NCBI GenBank assembly: GCA_031254195.1
Contig: JAIRUW010000013.1
Span: 27,011-91,010, forward strand
Direction: 5' to 3'
Source of the DNA: Oscillospiraceae bacterium
GTDB taxonomy: Bacteria > Bacillota > Clostridia > Oscillospirales > UBA929
Length of the DNA stretch: 64,000 nt
Under the pieces are notes generated by a model that did not search any database, was not told the origin of the DNA, and worked only from the letters and a program-made list of their open reading frames with translations. The stretch's first letter is position 1. Every line of letters starts with the position of its first letter. Of this stretch, positions 1,565-53,724 are shown piece by piece. Both the position numbers and the translations under genes were made by a program.

Positions 1565-2350
1565 ATGATGTTCCATGAGAAATTGCAACAATTGCGAAAG
1601 GAAAAAGGCCTGTCGCAGGAATCCCTGGCTGAAATGCTCGATGTTTCACGGCAAGCGGTCTCTAAATGGGAAAGCGGCCAATCCTATCCTGAGATGGACA
1701 AGCTGATAGCCCTCAGCGACATATTCGGGGTCACGCTGGACAGCCTTGTCAAAGATGGCGAGTTGCAGGAGGGCGGCGGCAATCCAACTTACGCGCCGTT
1801 TTATATGACGGGGAGGACTTCTTACGAGTACAAAAGCAAGAGGACGCTGTTCGGCCTGCCTTTGCTCCATGTCAACATCGGTTTCGGGGCAAAGAAAGCA
1901 AAGGGCGTCCTTGCCATCGGCAATATCGCCACAGGGATCGTGTCGATAGGGCTTTTCGCGCGCGGGCTTTTATCATTTGGGTTGCTTAGTATTGGGGTAC
2001 TCGCGTTTGGCACCCTTGCGACGGGCCTGTTGCTGGCGGTGGGCGGGGTCGCGGCGGGAACGATCGCCGTCGGTGCGGTCGCTATCGGAATATTCGCGCT
2101 GGGCGCGGTTGCCGTTGGGATGTTTTCGTTTGGGGCGGTGGCGGCAGCGTCCCACATCGCCGTCGGGGATCACGTGTATGGACATATCGCCGTCGGACGG
2201 GTCGCGGCGGGGGCCAGAACCTTCATAGACACATCGCCCGCCCGGAATTTTTCCGCGATCAGCGCGGAAGAGGTCAGAAAAGCCATCACAGAGGAATTTC
2301 CGGGCTTGTGGAATTGGATCGTGCGGCTGATGACGTCATGGTTTAGGTGA
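1565..2350 (+). CDS. XRE-family HTH regulator fused to a Gly/Ala-rich membrane domain
   Basis: LSQESLAEMLDVSRQAVSKWESG HTH; YEYKSKRTLFGLPLLHVNIG followed by repetitive GxxAxG hydrophobic segment; RBS AGGAGG. Confidence 0.85.
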   Translation: MMFHEKLQQLRKEKGLSQESLAEMLDVSRQAVSKWESGQSYPEMDKLIALSDIFGVTLDSLVKDGELQEGGGNPTYAPFYMTGRTSYEYKSKRTLFGLPLLHVNIGFGAKKAKGVLAIGNIATGIVSIGLFARGLLSFGLLSIGVLAFGTLATGLLLAVGGVAAGTIAVGAVAIGIFALGAVAVGMFSFGAVAAASHIAVGDHVYGHIAVGRVAAGARTFIDTSPARNFSAISAEEVRKAITEEFPGLWNWIVRLMTSWFR

Positions 2351-2371
2351 TGGGTGGGTGAAAAACAACAC

Positions 2372-2400
2372 TTGACACTGCGTCGATGTTGTGACATAAT
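2372..2400 (+). promoter_or_regulatory. Sigma-A promoter of antisense RNA 1
   Basis: TTGACA-N17-CATAAT with extended -10 TG; no ORF follows on this strand. Confidence 0.75.
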
Positions 2401-2405
2401 AAAAG

Positions 2406-2500
2406 CACAAGAGAGTTGACCGCTTGACGGTTAGCCCGTAATCAGCAGAATATCAGCATTTAGCCGTCATCCTGTGGTAGGGGGGACGGCTAATATGCTG
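2406..2500 (+). ncRNA. Putative type I antitoxin RNA (copy 1)
   Basis: 5' hairpin GTTGACCG/CGGTTAGC; 3' hairpin CAGCATTTAGCCGTC...GACGGCTAATATGCTG overlapping the peptide stop codon; layout shared with 4502-4593 and 53600-53690. Confidence 0.65.
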
Positions 2501-2573
2501 TAGGGGCGAAGCGGAACAATATGTAGAGCACCAATATAATAGTGATAGCATATCGCAGCAGCTTTTTTCCCAT
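2490..2573 (-). CDS. 27-aa hydrophobic peptide MGKKLLRYAITIILVLYILFRFAPTAY, putative type I toxin (copy 1)
   Basis: Translated by hand; RBS GAAAGGGGG; basic N-terminus plus single TM stretch; paralogous to 4431-4514. Confidence 0.8.
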   Translation of the reverse strand: MGKKLLRYAITIILVLYILFRFAPTAY

Positions 2574-2678
2574 AGGCACACCCCCTTTCGCACCCAGCGT
2601 ATGCTTGGCACAGGGGGACTAACCGCCCAACGTCTCTGTCAGATTCTCTCTTGTGTTGCCGGTTTCCCGGCAAATCAG

Positions 2679-2707
2679 AGTATATCACTGTTTTCGACAA
2701 AACACAA
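2679..2707 (-). promoter_or_regulatory. Sigma-A promoter of peptide 1 mRNA
   Basis: TTGTGT-N17-TATACT with extended -10 TG on minus strand. Confidence 0.6.
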
Positions 2708-2790
2708 CAGCAAACCCATTTCGTGTATCTATGGCTGTGGACTTCTCACCACACAACTAACGGGTACTCTATTCTGCACTCCATCATTAT

Positions 2791-3246
2791 TTATCTACTG
2801 CCATCCTTACTGCATGTCCAAAATGAGAGCTTCATGGCAATCGGATTGATGCCCACAGAGAGTACATAGCTGACCGCGAACCCCAAAGGGATCCCTTTCA
2901 TCACTGTCTGCAAATAATATGGAGGGAACCCAATCGCGAGCGCCGTATAGAGAAATCCGAAAAATACGACGTAGATGGACGAAAAAATAAGGGTTGTGAG
3001 CAGAATATACGAAAACGTGCCGTTTTTAGCGCGAAACAGTCCGGCAAACTTGTCCGCAAGCGGCTGAATGGGAATCAGCAGCCCCACCGCATTGGCGACG
3101 ACAAATCCGAATGCCATGTCACGCAAAACACCGGGGAACGGTATGGTTCCCGCATATATGAGGGAAAAGGCGGGGACGATCACAAGTACCATCAAAATGG
3201 AAAACCAAAACTGCGCAACATACCGAAACGCTTTCATGGTAAACAT
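2791..3246 (-). CDS. Small 4-TM membrane protein of unknown function
   Basis: Four hydrophobic segments; start taken at MFTMKAF after GGAGG; overlaps AraC stop region. Confidence 0.7.
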   Translation of the reverse strand: MFTMKAFRYVAQFWFSILMVLVIVPAFSLIYAGTIPFPGVLRDMAFGFVVANAVGLLIPIQPLADKFAGLFRAKNGTFSYILLTTLIFSSIYVVFFGFLYTALAIGFPPYYLQTVMKGIPLGFAVSYVLSVGINPIAMKLSFWTCSKDGSR

Positions 3247-4124
3247 GATTCCGCCTCCTGCTCCGCAAAGTGATTTTTCTTCACTTCTATCCAAATCTCA
3301 CCCATTTGCTCAGGATAGCTGCCGTCGCCGACAGGAGACACGACCATCTGATACTCGTCCGGTATATAGTCCGACGCGGGAAAAAACTCCGCGTATATCC
3401 GCTTCCAAATATCCGCTTCCGGGTGCCTTTCGGTCAGCTCCCGGCACATGAATTTGATCCATGTGCGCGCCGGGAGGTCCTTGACGGCATATCCTTCGGG
3501 GATCGTATCCTTATCATAGAAGGTAGCGACGTAATACAGCTGCGTTTCACCGTCAAACGAGGAGCCGTCCGATAATCCGATCAGCTCTCTGCCGGGGGAT
3601 GTGGAGAGCCCCGTCAATGCCCGTGTTGTGCCGTCGGCGTGGCATTGATGCCATAGCTGTGATGGGGCGTCGTATCCCTCCCCGTGCCTGACCGCTTTGC
3701 CGATCAGTCTAAATTCCTTCATTTCTTCAATGCAATACATCAAAACACTGCCGCCGTTTAGGGATAGTGAAATAGATAAAGGAAACAGCATATTGACCTT
3801 CGCCCCCTTCATTCTGGCGGCGGAAGGCAAAATGCTGTGAAAACGCTCAAAAGCCCTTGAAAAGCTCTCCGGTGTGTCGTAGCCATATTTCATGGCAATC
3901 TCAATGATCTTGCTGTCGCTTGACTGCAACTCAACGGCGGCCAGCGACAACCGGCGGTTGCGGATGTACGTTCCCAACGTCATACCGCTCAGCAAAAGGA
4001 ATAACCGCTGAAAATAAAACGGCGATACATACGCTTTCTTGGCAATGTCTTTAACGTCAAGGTCGCTTAGCATGTTATCCTCGACGTATTGGATTGCCTT
4101 TTGGATGCCTCTTGATAAATCCAT
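3234..4124 (-). CDS. AraC-family regulator with C-terminal GyrI-like effector domain
   Basis: SPFYFQRLF...YIRNRRLSLAA...YGYDTPESFSRAF; C-terminal IWKRIYAEFFP...EIWI; start MDLSRG after AGAGGTGAG. Confidence 0.9.
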   Translation of the reverse strand: MDLSRGIQKAIQYVEDNMLSDLDVKDIAKKAYVSPFYFQRLFLLLSGMTLGTYIRNRRLSLAAVELQSSDSKIIEIAMKYGYDTPESFSRAFERFHSILPSAARMKGAKVNMLFPLSISLSLNGGSVLMYCIEEMKEFRLIGKAVRHGEGYDAPSQLWHQCHADGTTRALTGLSTSPGRELIGLSDGSSFDGETQLYYVATFYDKDTIPEGYAVKDLPARTWIKFMCRELTERHPEADIWKRIYAEFFPASDYIPDEYQMVVSPVGDGSYPEQMGEIWIEVKKNHFAEQEAESCLP

Positions 4125-4319
4125 GCCCTCACCTCTTTCCCCTTCAGTATAGAGGAAAGAACATAACTTGTCTTGACTTTTTTTGCCGTGAAGTGTCAGT
4201 TGGATTATATTGTATGCTGATAGAGGCGTTGCACAAACGCCTACTATAAGTGTGCAACTGCCTCGTTTATGGAAATAAATGAAACGGTATAGGAAGGAAA
4301 AGGAATTGATAATTTTAGC

Positions 4320-4348
4320 TTGCGGCTTTTGCCGAAATATGCTAGGAT
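4320..4348 (+). promoter_or_regulatory. Sigma-A promoter of peptide 2 mRNA
   Basis: TTGCGG-N17-TAGGAT with extended -10 TG. Confidence 0.55.
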
Positions 4349-4430
4349 AGGCGAGCAAGAGGGTGTCGGTTACTGAAAACGCCGCCGTTCTTCCCCGCGA
4401 TTCTGTTGTGGAGGAAGGAGGTGGTTGCCA

Positions 4431-4514
4431 ATGGGAAAAAAGCTGCTCCGCTTTGCCTTATGTGTCGTTTTGGCGCTATGGCTCATGTGGTGGTTAGCCC
4501 CAAAAGCAATGTAG
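4431..4514 (+). CDS. 27-aa hydrophobic peptide MGKKLLRFALCVVLALWLMWWLAPKAM, putative type I toxin (copy 2)
   Basis: Translated by hand; strong RBS GAAGGAGGTG; same length and termini as copy 1. Confidence 0.8.
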   Translation: MGKKLLRFALCVVLALWLMWWLAPKAM

Positions 4515-4593
4515 CCGCTCTACCCCGCTCAAAGGTAACGGCTACATAGCTTGTTATTGATAGCGGCGTGTCGGTTTCCGGCACGCTCTTGCA
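4502..4593 (-). ncRNA. Putative type I antitoxin RNA (copy 2)
   Basis: 5' hairpin GCGTGCCGG-AAA-CCGACACGC; terminator GCTATGTAGCCG...CGGCTACATTGC-TTTT overlapping the peptide 3' end. Confidence 0.7.
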
Positions 4594-4598
4594 TTTTT

Positions 4599-4626
4599 AG
4601 TATAGCATATCCGGCAGGATTGTCAA
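4599..4626 (-). promoter_or_regulatory. Sigma-A promoter of antisense RNA 2
   Basis: TTGACA-N16-TATACT with extended -10; identical to 53567-53594. Confidence 0.8.
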
Positions 4627-4658
4627 GGATAATATTACAGGCTCCGAAACCAGTCGTA

Positions 4659-5576
4659 TCAGTCCTGTTCGCCCATCAGCAATGCCATTACGGCTTTCTG
4701 CACATGCAGGCGGTTTTCCGTTTCGTCGTAGATCTCTTTCGCGTGAGCGGCGAACGCCTCGGCGGTGATCTCTTCGCCGCGGTGGGCGGGCAGGCAGTGC
4801 TGCACGATCACGTTTTTGGCGCAGAGGGAGAGCAGCTCCCAATTTATCTGATACCCGGCAAAATCGCGGAGGCGTTTTTGCGCGTCGCCCTCCTGCCCCA
4901 TGCTGGCGAAAACATCGGTAAAGACCACGTTGGCCCCCTCCGCCGCCTCACGCGGGTCGCGCAGCAGGGCAAAATCGGGGTTCTTTCGCGCAGTCTCTAA
5001 AATCTCGGCGCGCGGTTCGTAGCCCTCGGGGCAGGCCACGCGTATCTTCATGCCGCAGGTCAAAGCCCCGGAGATTAGGCTGCAACACACATTGTTGCCG
5101 TCGCCCACCCAGCAGGCGGTCAGCCCCGCCAGCGTCGCCAAATGCTCGCGGACAGTCATCAGGTCAGCCAAAATCTGGCAGGGGTGTTCGTCGTCGGTCA
5201 AACCGTTGATGACGGGAATGTTGCCATACCGGGCGAAATCCTCCACGTCTTTTTGCGCGAAGGTACGGATCATCACGCCGTCCACATAGCGGCTCATTAC
5301 GTTGGCGGTGTCCTCAACCGGCTCCCCGCGCCCGAACTGCGCGTCGGCGGAGGTGAGGCAGATGGCGTGGCCACCCAGCTGGAACATCCCCGCTTCAAAC
5401 GACACGCGCGTCCGCGTGGACGCCTTGGTGAAAATCATCCCCAAGGTCTTCCCCTCCAGCACACGGTGCGACAGCTTGTGCTGCTGGTTGAACTTCATCT
5501 GGTCCGCCAGCGCCAGTATCTCCATAATGTCGTCCTGCGTCAGGTCGGACATTTTCAGCAAGTGTTTGACCGTCAT
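4659..5576 (-). CDS. argF: Ornithine carbamoyltransferase
   Basis: STRTR, HPCQ and HCLP motifs; arg operon context. Confidence 0.97.
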   Translation of the reverse strand: MTVKHLLKMSDLTQDDIMEILALADQMKFNQQHKLSHRVLEGKTLGMIFTKASTRTRVSFEAGMFQLGGHAICLTSADAQFGRGEPVEDTANVMSRYVDGVMIRTFAQKDVEDFARYGNIPVINGLTDDEHPCQILADLMTVREHLATLAGLTACWVGDGNNVCCSLISGALTCGMKIRVACPEGYEPRAEILETARKNPDFALLRDPREAAEGANVVFTDVFASMGQEGDAQKRLRDFAGYQINWELLSLCAKNVIVQHCLPAHRGEEITAEAFAAHAKEIYDETENRLHVQKAVMALLMGEQD

Positions 5577-6772
5577 GACAATACCTCCCTCAAAATCGCC
5601 AATCCTTCCCGTATCTCCGCGTCGCTCACCGTCAGCGGCGGCAGAAGTCTAACCGCGTCCGCGCCCGCCGTCAGGCAGACCAGCCCGTGGCCGAGCAGGG
5701 TTTGCATGTATGCTTTCGGGTCGCCGTCAACAATGATGCCGATCATCAGCCCCCGCCCGCGTGTGCCGCGAACCTTCCCGCCGATAGCCTCCAACCCGTC
5801 GCGCAGCAGCCTTCCCTTGCGCTCTACGTCGCTGATAACGCCCGATAGAATCTCCAGTGTGGCCAGCCCGGCCGCGCAAGCGAGCGGGTTGCCGCCGAAG
5901 GTGGAGCCGTGCAGCCCGGGCGTGAACACACCGCGCAGTTTTTGTCCTAGGATAAAGCCGCCGAGCGGGAAACCGCCCGCGACTCCCTTGGCAAAAGATA
6001 CGCCGTCAGGCTCCGCACCTAACGTCTGATACCCAAACCATGGTCCGCACCGCCCGATTCCGGTCTGTACCTCGTCAAAGAACAAGAGCCAGTCCCGTTC
6101 GGCGCACAGCGCGGCGACGGCCTGTACATAGTCTCTCTCCAGAGGGTAAACGCCGCCCTCTCCTTGCACCGCTTCCAACAATACCGCACAAATGTCGTTC
6201 CCCAGCGCTTTCAGGGCGTCTATATCTCCCGCGTCCACATGGACAAACCCCGGCGTCAGCGGCTGGAAGTATTGATGGAACGCGTCCTGCCCTGTTGCGG
6301 CGAGCGTGGTGTGCGTCCGCCCGTGAAAGGAGCGGTTGAGCGTTACGACGGTGTGCCGCCCGGGGCCGTATGTATCCTCGCTGTATTTCCTTGCGGCCTT
6401 GATCAAGCCTTCATTGGCCTCCGCGCCGGAGTTGGAAAAAAACAACGCGTCCAAGCCCGACAGCTCGCACAGCTTTTGCGCCAGCAGCCCGCCCGGCTCT
6501 GTATAATAAAGATTAGACGTATGAACGAGCGTCCCCGCTTGTCCCGCCACCGCCTTCACCCAATCCGGGTGCGCGTGGCCGACGGAATTGACGCCGAGAC
6601 CGGAGGAGAAATCGAGATACCGCCTGCCGGCGCTGTCGAAGAGGTACGACCCCTCGCCGCGGACGAAACAGACCTCCTGCCGCCCGTATGTGGGGAGGAT
6701 ATGGGCGCCGTAGAGTGTTTTAATTTGTGTGAGATCCATCAGGGACTTCTCCTTTACAGTCAATTCAGCCAT
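5573..6772 (-). CDS. argD: Acetylornithine aminotransferase
   Basis: NSGAEANE, SFHGRT, DEVQTG, AKG and HGSTFGGNPLACA; start may be the downstream Met. Confidence 0.95.
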   Translation of the reverse strand: MAELTVKEKSLMDLTQIKTLYGAHILPTYGRQEVCFVRGEGSYLFDSAGRRYLDFSSGLGVNSVGHAHPDWVKAVAGQAGTLVHTSNLYYTEPGGLLAQKLCELSGLDALFFSNSGAEANEGLIKAARKYSEDTYGPGRHTVVTLNRSFHGRTHTTLAATGQDAFHQYFQPLTPGFVHVDAGDIDALKALGNDICAVLLEAVQGEGGVYPLERDYVQAVAALCAERDWLLFFDEVQTGIGRCGPWFGYQTLGAEPDGVSFAKGVAGGFPLGGFILGQKLRGVFTPGLHGSTFGGNPLACAAGLATLEILSGVISDVERKGRLLRDGLEAIGGKVRGTRGRGLMIGIIVDGDPKAYMQTLLGHGLVCLTAGADAVRLLPPLTVSDAEIREGLAILREVLS

Positions 6773-7625
6773 TCCTGATCTGCGTCCCCATCCCCTCGAC
6801 CGTCAGCATCTCCACCAGCAGCGAGTGCGGGGCGCGCCCGTCGAGGATGACCGCGCTCTTGACCCCGCGCCGCAAGGCGTTGACGCAACAGTCCACTTTG
6901 GGGATCATCCCCTTGCTGACGACGCCGTCGCGCACCAGCGCGGGGATCTCGCTCAGCTTGGCCTCGGGAATCAGCGTCGCCGGGTCGTCTTTGTCGCGCA
7001 GGAGCCCCGGCACGTCGGTCAGCAGGATCAGCTTCTCCGCGCCCAGCTCCGCCGACAGTTCGGCCGCCGCCGTGTCGGCGTTGATGTTATACGCCGTGTC
7101 GGCGTCGATGCCGCGCGCGACTGTTGACACCACGGGGATATAGCCGTTATCCAGCGCCATCGCCACCGGCTTTGGGTCGGTTTTCTTGATCTCGCCTACC
7201 AGCCCATAGTCGTTTTTGCCCCGCAGCCGTTCGGCGAGGAAGAGGCCGCCGTCCAGCCCCGACAGGCCGACGGCATGGCCGCCCCGTCCGGCGATCTGCG
7301 AGACGAGGTTTTTGTTCACCGTGCCGCACAGCGTCATCTGCACGGCCTCCATTGTCTCCTCGTCGGTATAGCGCAAGCCGTCCACAAACTTCGGCTCCTT
7401 ACCCAGCCGGTTGAGCAGGGCGTTGATCTCCGGCCCGCCGCCGTGTACCAGCACCAGACGGATGCCCACCAGCGCGAGCAGGATGACGTCGTCGATGATG
7501 GCTTCGCGCAGCTCGGCTTTATCCATCGCCGCGCCGCCGTATTTGACCACGACCGTCTTTTTGCTGTATTGCCGGATGTACGGCAGCGCTTCGGTCAGGA
7601 CTGTTATCCTGTCTTTTCCCGTCAT
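6765..7625 (-). CDS. argB: Acetylglutamate kinase
   Basis: VKYGGAAM, VHGGGPEI, NINAD, GMIPKV. Confidence 0.97.
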   Translation of the reverse strand: MTGKDRITVLTEALPYIRQYSKKTVVVKYGGAAMDKAELREAIIDDVILLALVGIRLVLVHGGGPEINALLNRLGKEPKFVDGLRYTDEETMEAVQMTLCGTVNKNLVSQIAGRGGHAVGLSGLDGGLFLAERLRGKNDYGLVGEIKKTDPKPVAMALDNGYIPVVSTVARGIDADTAYNINADTAAAELSAELGAEKLILLTDVPGLLRDKDDPATLIPEAKLSEIPALVRDGVVSKGMIPKVDCCVNALRRGVKSAVILDGRAPHSLLVEMLTVEGMGTQIRNG

Positions 7626-8842
7626 GTGCGGTACGCCCCGTTTATCTCTACGTACTTTTCCGTTAGATCACAACCGAACGCCTCGGCCTCAAACGCGCCG
7701 TCGTGCAGATCGACCAGTATCTGCACCTCGTCGCGGCTGAGGATGCGCTTGGCGAGGCCTTCGTCAAAGGTCAGCCCCGCGCCGTCCTTGCAGACGTCGA
7801 TGGATTCGCCGGTGGATTTGAATGATACGTCCACATTCTCAGGCTTGAACGGGGCCTTGCTGTAACCCAAGGCGCACAGCACCCGTCCCCAGTTGGCGTC
7901 CGCGCCGTACATGGCCGCTTTGACAAGGCTGGAGGAGATGACGCCCATCGCCAGCTTTTCGGCGCACTCCTCGCTGCTCGCGCCTTTGACGAGGCAGGAC
8001 ACCAGCTTGCTCGCGCCCTCGCCGTCGCGGGCGATCATTTTCGCCAGCTTGCCGTTGACAAAGTTGACGGCCTCCAAAAACTGCCTGTATTCCGCGCCTT
8101 TCCATTCGATCTGCGGGTTCCCGGCAAGACCGCTGGCCAGCGCCGCTACCATATCGTTGGTGGAGGTATCGCCGTCCACGCTGATGCGGTTGTAGGTGAT
8201 ACGGTTGGAGTCGCTCAAAGCGGCGTGCAGCATCTCCGAGGTGATGGCGGCGTCGGTGGTGATGAAGGCCAGCATGGTCGCCATGTTGGGGTGGATCATG
8301 CCGCTGCCCTTGGCGATGCCGCCGACCGTGACTGTTTTACCCGCGATCAGGACTTGTGCCGCCACCTGTTTCTCACAGGTGTCGGTGGTCATGATGGCCG
8401 CCGCCGCTTCATCGGAGCCATAGCGCGACAAACCCTTGACCAAAGAGGGGATCGCCTCCGTCACCGTCTCGACCGGCAGTGGTATGCCGATGACGCCGGT
8501 GGAATTGATGATAATCTCGTCGGGGCGGATGGACAGCTCCTTTGCCAATGCTTCGCAGACCCTCCACGCGTTCTCGTTGCCGTCCGGCGCGCAGGCGTTG
8601 GCGTTGCCGCTGTTGACGATAACGGCGCGCGCCGTGCCGCGTACGAGATTGCGCTTGGTGACTTGAAGCGGCGCGGCCTGCACCTTGTTGGTGGTGAACA
8701 GCGCCGCGACCGAGCAGTCGCAGTCGGCAAAGATGAGGGCGAGGTCTTTTTTCGAGGTGTTCCTGCGGATCCCGGCGTGGACGCCGGAAGCCGAAAACCC
8801 TTTGGCGGCACAGCATCCGCCCTGTATTTCTTTCATTTTCAA
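7622..8842 (-). CDS. argJ: Bifunctional ornithine acetyltransferase / N-acetylglutamate synthase
   Basis: NSGNANAC, MTTDT, KGSGMIHPNMATML, DGDTSTND, DGEGA. Confidence 0.97.
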   Translation of the reverse strand: MKMKEIQGGCCAAKGFSASGVHAGIRRNTSKKDLALIFADCDCSVAALFTTNKVQAAPLQVTKRNLVRGTARAVIVNSGNANACAPDGNENAWRVCEALAKELSIRPDEIIINSTGVIGIPLPVETVTEAIPSLVKGLSRYGSDEAAAAIMTTDTCEKQVAAQVLIAGKTVTVGGIAKGSGMIHPNMATMLAFITTDAAITSEMLHAALSDSNRITYNRISVDGDTSTNDMVAALASGLAGNPQIEWKGAEYRQFLEAVNFVNGKLAKMIARDGEGASKLVSCLVKGASSEECAEKLAMGVISSSLVKAAMYGADANWGRVLCALGYSKAPFKPENVDVSFKSTGESIDVCKDGAGLTFDEGLAKRILSRDEVQILVDLHDGAFEAEAFGCDLTEKYVEINGAYRT

Positions 8843-53566: not shown

Positions 53567-53594
53567 TTGACAATCCTGCCGGATATGCTATACT
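53567..53594 (+). promoter_or_regulatory. Sigma-A promoter of antisense RNA 3
   Basis: TTGACA-N16-TATACT; identical to reverse complement of 4599-4626. Confidence 0.8.
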
Positions 53595-53599
53595 GAAAG

Positions 53600-53690
53600 T
53601 GCAAGAGCGTGTCGTTACCGACACGCCACCGTAAGAAATAGCTTATGTAGCCGTTATCCTTTGGGGGATAGAGCGGCTACATAGCTTTTG
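53600..53690 (+). ncRNA. Putative orphan type I antitoxin RNA (copy 3)
   Basis: GCAAGAGCGTGTCG-ttac-CGACACGC hairpin; terminator ATGTAGCCG...CGGCTACATAGC-TTTT; homologous to copy 2. Confidence 0.7.
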
Positions 53691-53724
53691 GGGCAAACTT
53701 TATCAGGAGCCAGAGCGCGAATAA
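53677..53724 (-). pseudogene. 3' remnant of toxin peptide (LFALWLLIKFAPKAM*)
   Basis: Aligns with C-terminal 15 aa of copy 2 (VLALWLMWWLAPKAM); no MGKK start, RBS or leader upstream. Confidence 0.75.

Follow-up and report, generated by a model that had tools for sequence, protein, structure and literature searches.

Organization of the locus

Positions 2372-2707 of the window, i.e. the whole 64,000-nt stretch of DNA that was analyzed, raise the question of what kind of genetic element is formed by a very short open reading frame (ORF) that is faced by a convergent promoter. The tiny size of both genes, which go unannotated, makes type I toxin-antitoxin systems difficult to detect, and the initial annotation had read this locus as a candidate for a new family of such systems, present in three copies. 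The ORF, both promoters, the 5' hairpin, the repeat and the stop-codon hairpin that it described were all found again, at unchanged positions. The features of copy 1 are as follows:

2573-2490, minus strand: peptide ORF of 27 codons plus stop, MGKKLLRYAITIILVLYILFRFAPTAY, with coding-type variation among 31 homologues
2581-2585, minus strand: Shine-Dalgarno (SD) sequence GGGGG, 7 nt 5' of the ATG, mostly paired in predicted folds
2372-2400, plus strand: small-RNA promoter, TTGACA (2372-2377), 17 nt, CATAAT (2395-2400), with TG before the -10 element
2707-2679, minus strand: mRNA promoter, TTGTGT (2707-2702), 17 nt, TATACT (2684-2679), with TG before the -10 element
2407-2511, plus strand: predicted antisense small RNA (covariance model R1, E 7.2e-12)
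around 2414-2436, plus strand: 5' hairpin of the small RNA
2459-2495, both strands: stop-codon hairpin (-20.6 kcal/mol, with covariation), enclosing TAG 2492-2490 of the minus strand
2616-2655, minus strand: 5' arm of a predicted closing helix (P1-like), based on the minimum-energy fold and directional substitutions, containing CACAAGAGAG and the CGTTGGGCGGTTAGT segment
2406-2437, minus strand: 3' arm of the closing helix, to which the small RNA is complementary over its initial ~32 nt
2656-2673, minus strand: 5'-terminal hairpin TTGCCGG-GAAA-CCGGCAA, an extra element

The 5' ends of both RNAs of copy 1 were placed by promoter consensus. The small-RNA promoter agrees with the consensus at 11 of 12 positions, and the promoter of the peptide mRNA is weaker. 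The match of the small RNA to model R1 (G000:C52:29417-29521) equals window positions 2407-2511; its 3' end is uncertain, since the U-run present in other copies is missing here. The hairpin at 2459-2495 belongs to both RNAs: in the small RNA it is the terminator-like stem-loop, and in the mRNA it forms a stem-loop as well. The repeat CACAAGAGAG stands at 2406-2415 on the plus strand, with its complement again at 2646-2655, and a T-run (2397-2405) comes after the 3' arm of the closing helix. Among the modules examined, the extra 5'-terminal hairpin occurs only in copy 1 and in G357. In the predicted folds, the SD and start codon of copy 1 have a mean unpaired probability of 0.31, in line with the proposed sequestration of the SD; its partner is ambiguous, as the minimum-energy fold pairs it with GCCCCU close to the end of the ORF and not with the upstream CCCCCU that had been named.

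Further copies and their genomic setting

The window contains a second intact copy. What had been counted as the third, near 53.6 kb, is a remnant. The corresponding features are:

4320-4348, plus strand: mRNA promoter of copy 2, TTGCGG-17-TAGGAT
4355-4598, plus strand: predicted full-length mRNA of copy 2, its leader beginning GCAAGAG
4431-4514, plus strand: ORF of copy 2, MGKKLLRFALCVVLALWLMWWLAPKAM
4508-4547, plus strand: stop-codon hairpin of copy 2
4594-4493, minus strand: antisense small RNA of copy 2 (R1 match, E 4.1e-17)
4626-4599, minus strand: small-RNA promoter of copy 2, TTGACA-16-TATACT
53567-53724: remnant, with the ORF end (last 15 codons plus stop) at 53724-53677, minus strand
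53599-53698, plus strand: intact small-RNA gene of the remnant (R1 match, E 9.4e-15)
53567-53594, plus strand: small-RNA promoter of the remnant, TTGACA (53567-53572) and TATACT (53589-53594)

In the predicted fold of the copy 2 leader, an anti-SD sequence CTTCCCC pairs with the SD GGAGG. The 3' arm of this mRNA ends with CTCTTGC followed by a T-run, 25 of the first 30 nt of the mRNA find a partner among the last 50 nt upon minimum-energy folding, and a local alternative terminator-like hairpin is found at 4565-4587. The remnant lacks the mRNA promoter, the leader and the first half of the ORF; its orphan small RNA matches the ORF ends of copies 3 and 4.

The whole genome (2.24 Mb) carries seven intact copies and one remnant, and the peptides of the other copies are only 44-48% identical to that of copy 1. 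Up to eight matches per genome were found (G000 and G028). Copies 1 and 2 are flanked by ordinary chromosomal genes and two modules lie inside phage structural gene clusters; the contexts are unrelated, and no partner gene is conserved beside the modules. A convergent promoter is present beside every intact ORF. All three decayed copies that we saw, i.e. the remnant in the window, L042 and G021 (TGA at codon 4), are without an intact ORF, and the small-RNA gene is visibly kept in the first two.

This setting bears on a first alternative, namely that the ORF encodes a harmless small membrane protein, such as a regulator or accessory subunit, whose level is tuned by a cis-antisense RNA with no addiction or killing involved. 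The position of copies 1 and 2 among ordinary chromosomal genes would suit such a protein, as would the properties of the peptide presented below, i.e. the lack of a match to any toxin family and a layout of charges unlike that of the described Gram-positive type I toxins. However, the high number of matches per genome in unrelated contexts, two of them phage structural clusters, the lack of a conserved partner gene and the loss of the ORF from decayed copies, two of which visibly keep the small-RNA gene, all speak against it, and we consider this explanation unlikely.

The peptide is an unnamed family

The peptide of copy 1 consists of 27 amino acids, while family members range from 23 to 31 (alignment A3). 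Its N-terminus is basic, some 19 hydrophobic residues follow, and the short end reads A-P-x-A-x. Every ORF is preceded by a GGAGG-like site located 5-9 nt 5' of the start codon. Across 31 ORFs, column entropy at codon positions 1, 2 and 3 amounted to 1.16, 0.62 and 1.56 bits, respectively, the third position being the most variable, and 51% of single-base codon differences were synonymous, compared with 24% expected. Judged by this pattern of variation, the ORF is under coding selection.

The Pfam and NCBIfam libraries contain models of type I toxins such as Hok/Sok, Ibs, TisB and Ldr. The peptide matched neither these nor the other type I toxin models in the two libraries, and a search with 26 peptides against Pfam, NCBIfam, PHROGs and PADLOC returned singleton matches only (E ≥ 0.013), while the sequences in PDB gave none. 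Two of ten peptides were present in a collection of 15 billion predicted proteins, and about 70 clusters at 50% identity were assigned to the family among 1.84 billion representative proteins; none of the 12 peptides found over both look-ups bears a name beyond 'hypothetical protein'. As far as these searches reach, the peptide is an unnamed family outside every described family tested, which agrees with the suggestion that it was undescribed.

The RNA components gave a similar picture. No Rfam covariance model reached its gathering score anywhere in the 64-kb window, with no antitoxin RNA family matching the small RNA, and at E ≤ 10 the region 2300-4700 yielded only three chance-level matches (E 2.2-9.9). 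A blastn comparison of the module with plasmids gave no match. In the literature, of which most subscription journals lay outside the search, we did not find any system of this kind reported for Oscillospiraceae or Ruminococcaceae. Fozo et al. (2010) reportedly list more than 2000 candidate toxin ORFs in supplementary tables, and these may include relatives.

Related modules were detected in 16 of 401 genomes sampled in the same order, and a sample of 400 other genomes of the class contained none; the label 'clostridial family' is thus too broad. The layout described above was found in 33 intact modules, distributed over several genomes, which is more than chance would produce, although the modules compared are mutually related and the counts and p-values given here overstate their independence. 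Eleven of 25 sequence-pattern matches in genome contigs were rejected as chance, having neither a hydrophobic ORF nor a convergent promoter. Order-level matches in family f11, G088, G295 and G064 proved to be N-termini or fragments of longer ORFs and were also discarded as modules.

Promoters and the stop-codon hairpin are conserved

A near-consensus small-RNA promoter was found at the equivalent position in all 33 intact modules, and its score ranged from 9.5 to 12.5 in all modules on a 13-point scale made for this analysis. The mRNA promoter is often weaker (e.g. TTGCGG-17-TAGGAT), and a small-RNA promoter that is consistently the stronger of the two is a further point against a harmless protein.

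All 36 loci examined, including two remnants and one pseudogene, are predicted to form the stop-codon hairpin, and compensatory changes were observed in 8 of its 11 pairs. In the alignment, 91.2% of cells are paired compared with 78.8% in shuffled controls, and the covariation score is 0.367 versus 0.145; in both cases, none of 500 shuffles reached the observed value.

A predicted closing helix between the mRNA ends

The mRNA and the small RNA begin with matching stretches of ~35 nt, and the full-length mRNA is therefore predicted to close on itself. Minimum-energy folding placed 20-30 of the 30 leading nt in pairs with the terminal 50 nt for 25 of 27 modules; the two others were copy 1, in which the extra 5' hairpin reduces the number to 10, and G006, in which it is 4. 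The closing duplex has a mean energy of -49 kcal/mol, compared with -35 kcal/mol for the mirror-image strand.

Differences between the two arms proved to be directional. Between the leader and the 5' end of the small RNA, 110 transitions are compatible with G-U pairing in the mRNA and 16 are not (33 modules), and when modules are taken one by one, compatible changes prevail in 28, are fewer in one and equal in four. A set of 21 representatives sharing less than 70% identity gave 71 compatible and 11 incompatible transitions. The bias persists outside self-complementary stems, both in the 5' tail (9 versus 1) and in loops (45 versus 2). We take this directionality to argue for selection on the mRNA helix. 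RNAalifold applied to 33 full-length mRNAs recovered part of the helix, with many two-sided changes (CG 17 and GC 14 at one pair); it returned only 12 pairs on the MAFFT alignment, as the mRNA ends align poorly between subfamilies. Taken as sequence comparison, these data argue for a 5'-3' closing helix under selection.

No separate terminator stem-loop was found beyond the closing helix, where only a T-run follows the 3' arm. The mean predicted accessibility of the SD and start codon in 33 modules is 0.34 in the full-length mRNA, 0.32 when bound by the small RNA and 0.27 after 3' truncation; no SD switch upon small-RNA binding or 3' trimming is thus predicted.

The helix also offers another reading of a contact proposed earlier. 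The 15-nt complementarity, including G-U pairs, between the small RNA (2415-2429) and the leader is present as described. As a regulatory contact it is most simply explained as a by-product of the closing helix, because the leader segment is the 5' arm of that helix and the first hairpin of the small RNA is self-complementary. Such a contact would be central to a par/Fst-like arrangement, in which the mRNA ends at the shared stop-codon hairpin and the small RNA blocks translation of the leader in trans via repeats. Indeed, the stop-codon hairpin could serve as a bidirectional terminator, the 15-nt complementarity is real and, in par, the contact begins at the terminator loops and the SD is hidden by a 5' stem (PMC7472228). 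However, the repeats are inverted here and not direct, so that the two RNAs share their 5'-end sequence and, outside palindromic stems, are alike rather than complementary. Furthermore, the G-U bias in the non-palindromic 5' tail and in loops can only be explained by pairing with the mRNA's own far 3' region, and the peptides have no PXXXG motif and no charged tail. We therefore regard a par/Fst-like mechanism as improbable; the par/Fst or hok/sok layout suggested by the initial annotation gives way to one that fits bsrG/SR4.

The same repeats allow for yet another explanation, in which they are terminal repeats for a transposase and the module is a miniature mobile element with an incidental ORF and promoters. 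In favor of this, the modules exist in several copies, measure about 300 bp and have imperfect inverted repeats of ~35 nt on either side. Nevertheless, the ORF varies as coding sequence does, the repeats differ directionally, as expected of an RNA helix and not of DNA repeats, and their likeness stops before the promoter spacers (0.44 within a module versus 0.39 between modules). Moreover, peptides within one genome share just 44-48% identity with copy 1, and inspection of the flanks of copies 2-4 by eye showed no target-site duplication. This explanation appears very improbable. The idea that the small-RNA gene arose as a whole inverted duplicate of the promoter and leader was rejected as well, since the likeness of the spacers is not above the between-module level.

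Sister modules carry other peptides

The same genome contains sister modules with unrelated peptides, among them three (a tandem pair on C78 and one on C14) the peptides of which match Pfam PF16935 Hol_Tox ('putative holin-like toxin') above the curated cut-off. Their 5' and 3' UTRs are homologous to those of the new family (51/79 and 53/74 positions identical, z 7.6 and 10.1), they share its promoters, closing helix and stop-codon hairpin, and the small-RNA model built from the new family also matches one of them. The peptides, in contrast, are unrelated: the Hol_Tox model matched none of 26 new peptides, hhalign gave a probability of 0.5% for the new peptide against the Hol_Tox peptides of this genome, and charges are C-terminal in Hol_Tox and N-terminal in the new family. 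That homologous modules carry Hol_Tox peptides also weighs against the harmless-protein explanation. A tblastn search of phages with a Hol_Tox peptide gave two unannotated Listeria phage matches (E 0.3) and linked no named toxin. Peptides of G163 and G154, which belong to other families and look Hol_Tox-like by eye, were rejected by Pfam (0/5).

Altogether, the 2.24-Mb genome has at least 12 cassettes with three unrelated types of cargo, i.e. the A-P-K-A-M peptide with the basic N-terminus, Hol_Tox and a 24-residue amphipathic cationic peptide, and additional types are present elsewhere in the order, in other families. It is conceivable, and we propose it tentatively, that the conserved unit is not the peptide but an RNA chassis, in which the nested convergent small RNA is combined with the leader, stop-codon hairpin and 5'-3' closing helix, and that this chassis works as a portable cassette whose small ORF has been exchanged for unrelated ones.

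Proposed mechanism and its implications

The convergent promoters, hydrophobic peptide, sequestered SD and possible 5'-3' foldback agree with the type I toxin-antitoxin-like module suggested at the outset, and the locus is probably such a module, of the bsrG/SR4 architectural kind. In the mechanism that we propose, a weak promoter would produce an mRNA of ~270 nt encoding a 27-residue single-helix membrane peptide, and the first ~35-40 nt of this mRNA would pair with its last ~32 nt, leaving the molecule closed; a stem would hold the SD, and the stop codon would fall within the 5' arm of a stem-loop. In copy 1, this mRNA would extend from about 2672 to about 2403. A strong convergent promoter just past the mRNA end would yield a small RNA of ~100 nt that is fully complementary to the last ~100 nt of the mRNA. 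The terminator stem-loop of the small RNA, being the complement of the stop-codon stem-loop, would be the likely first contact. As the 5' part of the small RNA copies the leader, it would compete with the leader for the 3' arm; the pairing would open the closing helix and form a long duplex for RNase III, and the peptide would not be made. Loss of a short-lived small RNA would then lead to peptide synthesis and membrane damage. The transcripts and their ends, the cleavage by RNase III, the shorter life of the small RNA and the toxicity of the peptide are what we infer.

The accepted view of how type I systems work is unchanged by these findings. They add an unnamed peptide family in uncultured genomes labelled as Oscillospiraceae and indicate, from sequence alone, that selection acts on a closing helix of the bsrG type in organisms remote from Bacillus. 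Other candidate fold-back mRNAs may be examined with the directional G-U test, and the modules represent natural, mutually distinct RNA control cassettes that are ready-made. A shared chassis with unrelated cargo would provide a concrete case for the origin of new type I toxins; if the cassette reading is true, type I systems diversify by ORF replacement under fixed RNA control. Under that reading, the A-P-K-A-M peptide, with its charges at the end opposite to that of known relatives, would be a new class of membrane-active toxin.

Comparison with known systems

In hok/Sok and AapA1/IsoA1, the full-length mRNA folds back so that its two ends pair, and the antisense RNA binds the 5' region of the 3'-processed mRNA. 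Pairing of the mRNA ends is predicted in the present modules as well, whereas their small RNA is complementary to the 3' region of the mRNA; in addition, they have no mok-like leader ORF and no match to Hok in Pfam.

The toxins of B. subtilis and C. difficile that are described in PMC6563280 have a charged C-terminus. Those of the C. difficile CD0956.2 type comprise 34-59 residues with a hydrophobic N-terminus and a lysine-rich C-terminus (PMC6563280), whereas the peptides described here carry N-terminal charges on 23-31 residues.

With par of E. faecalis pAD1 (Fst, RNA I-RNA II), the modules share convergent promoters and complementary terminator stem-loops, through which the two RNAs probably meet first, as well as an SD hidden by a 5' stem and an extreme 5' end sequestered in a helix (PMC7472228). 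In par, however, direct repeats DRa and DRb create complementarity at the start codon and SD, while the repeats are inverted here, and the PXXXG(C) motif, conserved tryptophan and charged C-terminal tail of Fst/Ldr peptides are all missing in alignment A3 (PMC7472228).

Parallels also exist with txpA/RatA, yonT/SR6 and other 3'-overlapping Gram-positive type I pairs, which are likewise convergent, with an antitoxin that pairs at the 3' end of the toxin mRNA and acts via RNase III degradation (PMC6562991; PMC8594479). They differ in their peptides, in overlaps of 100-140 bp and in longer antitoxin RNAs.

The closest counterpart is bsrG/SR4 of the B. subtilis SPbeta prophage, to which bsrE/SR5 is described in a review as similar in RNA structure. 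In the bsrG mRNA, helix P1 is formed by nt 1-35 and nt 232-262, a stem contains the SD, and SL3 carries the stop codon in its 5' part (PMC3834814); the terminator loop of SR4 contacts the SL3 loop, and SR4 pairs with the 3' arm of P1 and frees nt 1-33, with cleavage by RNase III (PMC3834814; PMC6562991). The modules share with it (i) an mRNA whose first ~35 nt, by prediction here, pair with a stretch 3' of the ORF, (ii) an SD in a stem, though predicted here, (iii) a stem-loop that faces the antitoxin terminator loop and has the stop codon in its 5' part, (iv) a convergent antitoxin RNA, here a predicted one, that is complementary to the 3' part of the mRNA and covers the 3' arm of the closing helix, whereby its binding would free the 5' arm, and (v) the occurrence of some copies in prophages. 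Differences also exist. The peptide is unrelated and without a Pfam match, and the small RNA, which is ~100 nt long, has its start exactly where the closing helix ends, whereas SR4 has 180 nt and a non-complementary 5' stem-loop; an SL4-like terminator stem-loop past the closing helix is lacking in the modules; and antitoxin binding extends the SD stem in bsrG, whereas no tightening is predicted here (0.34 versus 0.32). bsrG/SR4 has been probed experimentally, while the present modules are known from their sequence. This agreement with the layout of a proven toxin system is the last point that weighs against a harmless protein. Within the limits of these comparisons, the locus is a new peptide family, of putative toxicity, on an already known type I architecture.

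Organization of the module and its copies in the window

All sequence features that the initial annotation had named for 2372-2707 (the ORF, both promoters, the 5' hairpin and the stop-codon hairpin) were present as described. Three copies had been counted in the window; a second intact one was indeed found at 4431-4514, whereas the third, at about 53.6 kb, turned out to be a remnant. The features are as follows.

2573-2490, minus strand: copy 1 ORF, MGKKLLRYAITIILVLYILFRFAPTAY, 27 codons, with GGGGG located 7 nt upstream of the start codon ATG
2707-2679, minus strand: copy 1 mRNA promoter TTGTGT-17-TATACT, upstream of the ORF
2372-2400, plus strand: copy 1 convergent promoter TTGACA-17-CATAAT, TG-extended, 11/12 consensus matches, directed into the 3' end of the ORF
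2459-2495: copy 1 hairpin around the stop codon
4431-4514, plus strand: copy 2 ORF, MGKKLLRFALCVVLALWLMWWLAPKAM, of the second intact module
53567-53724: remnant, or orphan small-RNA gene, keeping the promoter, the whole antisense RNA, the hairpin and the last 15 codons

The predicted copy 1 mRNA starts with the hairpin TTGCCGG-GAAA-CCGGCAA. A promoter scan of 2200-4800 returned 5 sites (3.3 +/- 1.6 in shuffles), the best two being the antisense promoters of copies 1 and 2. In the remnant nothing is left of the mRNA promoter, the leader or the 5' half of the ORF; since its ORF end matches those of copies 3 and 4, its small RNA might still act on these in trans.

Evidence that the peptide ORF is coding

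Judged by its coding pattern, the peptide ORF is a gene. All ORFs carry a GGAGG-like site 5-9 nt upstream of ATG, GTG or TTG. When 31 homologues were compared over their final 22 codons, entropy per column was 1.16, 0.62 and 1.56 bits at the first, second and third codon position, respectively, and 51% of single-base codon differences were synonymous, compared with 24% expected. The peptides share a basic N-terminus, an L-R-F/Y motif and about 19 hydrophobic residues, and end in A/S-P-K-A followed by one variable residue. The strong conservation of this C-terminal end may reflect the double use of its codons, from which the terminator of the small RNA also derives its U-run and 3' arm.

Selection on an RNA helix

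In the 33 intact modules, whose relatedness to one another makes all counts overstate independence, the convergent promoter is near consensus and the mRNA promoter is often weaker. The two predicted RNAs of a module, with ends inferred from promoter consensus, have a nearly identical first ~35 nt, a sequence that varies between subfamilies and matches within every module. Because the genes converge, the far 3' end of the mRNA can pair with the 5' end of the same molecule by complementarity, and in the predicted minimum-energy folds of 25 of 27 modules the final 50 nt took up 20-30 of the 30 nt at the 5' end in such pairs (the closing helix). The exceptions were the module of the sampled genome G006 (4 nt paired) and copy 1, in which only 10 nt pair because of the extra 5' hairpin.

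Differences between leader and small RNA are directional: in 110 of them the leader shows G against A of the small RNA, or U against C, whereas 16 run the opposite way; differences in the favoured direction were more numerous in 28 modules, fewer in 1 and equal in 4, and 21 representatives gave 71 vs 11. Such changes preserve G-U pairs of the mRNA helix and would disrupt the mirror helix. The initial annotation had pointed to the small RNA pairing with the leader; since the bias also holds in the non-palindromic 5' tail (9 vs 1) and in loops (45 vs 2), such pairing cannot be its source. Leader likeness stops short of the promoter spacers, whose likeness was 0.44 within modules and 0.39 between them. 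Together, the folds, the directional changes and the spacers show selection acting on a predicted helix between the 5' and 3' ends of the mRNA, which implies that the mRNA extends as far as the position where the small RNA begins.

The SD is predicted to lie inside a local stem, with a mean accessibility of about 0.3. The stop-codon hairpin folds in 36/36 loci and covaries (e.g., TAGCCG/CGGCTA, TGACCG/CGGTCA, TAACCG/CGGTTA), with two-sided changes in 8 of 11 pairs and a covariation score reached by 0 of 500 shuffles.

The same RNA layout with other peptides

A small-RNA covariance model recovered the 8 expected loci of the window's genome at E <= 1.3e-9, together with two weak matches (E about 0.004), both complete modules with other peptides. 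One encodes a peptide that scores 24.9 bits with the Pfam Hol_Tox model, above the cut-off of 23.3. The other (L088, G000:C28:36096-36252) encodes, on the same RNA layout, a 24-residue amphipathic cationic peptide, MSVLTEFRKILQALASLIRAIKMK, which had no family match; its closing helix is predicted for only 6 of the first 30 nt. Three Hol_Tox ORFs were located in this genome.

G000:C78:35992-36456 (L090, L092, L089): tandem pair of Hol_Tox ORFs, 390 bp apart
G000:C14:36799-36879 (L091): Hol_Tox ORF

All three have a convergent promoter and a predicted closing helix that takes in 23-25 of the 30 nt at the 5' end; the stop codon lies inside the hairpin in two, and the third has the hairpin just 3' of it. 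The untranslated regions of the Hol_Tox modules can be aligned with those of the new family: the 5' UTR is identical to that of copy 1 at 51/79 positions (z 7.6), and the 3' parts to the new family at 50/78 and 53/74 (z 7.5 and 10.1, respectively). No relationship links the encoded peptides (hhalign probability 0.5%). At the order level the small-RNA model matched 9 of 151 genomes, and each of five loci inspected outside the home family held a small ORF ending in the hairpin and encoding still other peptides, none matching Hol_Tox. The Hol_Tox model also matches the B. subtilis control genome. A similar motif is present at the N-terminus of the type I toxins of B. subtilis. From the architecture and the Hol_Tox sister modules, we infer that the new peptide is probably toxic.

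Distribution and genomic surroundings

The window's genome (2.24 Mb, 80 contigs, 91% complete) holds 7 intact copies and the remnant. Of 401 genomes sampled within the order, a profile built from 26 peptides matched 16, including G064 (not a module) and G021 (a pseudogene); per family, with the window's genome excluded, the matches were 9/26, 3/26, 1/13, 1/26 and 1/25, with none in the remaining 25 families of this sample and none in a further sample of 400 genomes from elsewhere in the class. The pseudogene (L073, G021:C16:13028-13102) has an in-frame TGA at codon 4 and retains the remaining ORF and the hairpin. Genome G028 has 8 peptide matches, equal to the window's genome, and two back-to-back modules within 750 bp (L064 and L082, G028:C84:2091-2828). 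One module (L053, G247:C4:35051-35131) is a near-identical match to copy 2, from which it differs at 4 of 27 residues; its genome, 47% complete, is placed in another family than the window's, and the likeness suggests either that the module was transferred recently or that the genome was wrongly binned or classified.

Searching 185,579 public species genomes for exact matches to a DNA pattern spanning the stop-codon hairpin gave 25 loci, 14 of them with a module: 13 labelled "Oscillospiraceae bacterium" (12 intact, 1 remnant), which are all the pattern loci under that label, and 1 "Candidatus Roslinia caecavium". The remaining 11 had neither such an ORF nor a promoter. In 1.84 billion representative proteins, the profile gave 70 matches at E <= 0.001, either of 29-31 residues or longer mis-called frames with the peptide at the end. 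Two of 10 peptides from examined loci were present in a 15-billion-protein collection, both unnamed, and of 10 protein-library matches looked up, one was named, as "hypothetical protein".

Copies 1 and 2 are neighboured by chromosomal genes. They face outward (2372-4626) with just two genes between them, for a 167-aa membrane protein (weak DUF2798 match) and an AraC/GyrI-type regulator, and may be the end marks of a small inserted island. On one flank lie a gene of the mannitol dehydrogenase family and one for an HTH-plus-membrane protein. A 261-aa protein encoded directly beside copy 1 (1565-2350, plus strand) has a Cro/C1-type HTH at its N-terminus and, after it, a long hydrophobic repeat region rich in glycine and alanine. 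The other flank is an arginine operon, an ordinary biosynthetic gene row (4659-8842, minus strand) with OTCase confirmed by Pfam and neighbours that, by their translations only, look like argD, argB and argJ.

Two modules of another genome lie on contigs with a complete set of phage structural genes, one between head-closure and tail-sheath genes and the other adjoining sheath genes. These complete modules, L086 (about 6100-6500) and L087 (about 6500-6900), are on contigs shared with loci L029 and L041; the structural genes around them include those for tape measure, sheath, major head and an XkdN-like tail protein.

Comparison with known type I systems

In the probed structure of the B. subtilis bsrG mRNA, helix P1 joins nt 1-35 with nt 232-262, the SD lies within a stem and the stop codon in the 5' part of SL3; the SR4 terminator loop first contacts the SL3 loop, SR4 next binds the P1 3' arm, which leaves nt 1-33 single-stranded, and cleavage by RNase III follows (PMC3834814, PMC6562991). 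The module has the same plan (5'/3' helix, SD stem, stop codon in a hairpin), here as predicted folds, and with this precedent the logic of a leader look-alike displacing the leader is already known. In contrast to bsrG/SR4, the module's small RNA is shorter than SR4 and begins at the very end of the helix, a separate terminator after the helix is absent, and no tightening of the SD stem is predicted. The initial annotation had favoured a par/Fst- and hok/sok-type layout, which was not supported: par/Fst has direct repeats, unlike the module (PMC7472228), and the antisense RNA of hok/Sok binds a different site, whereas the bsrG/SR4 plan fits. Its proposal of an undescribed peptide family was supported. 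The peptide is unrelated to that of bsrG. As read from its sequence, the locus is a type I toxin-antitoxin-like module with an undescribed peptide family and the RNA design of bsrG/SR4.
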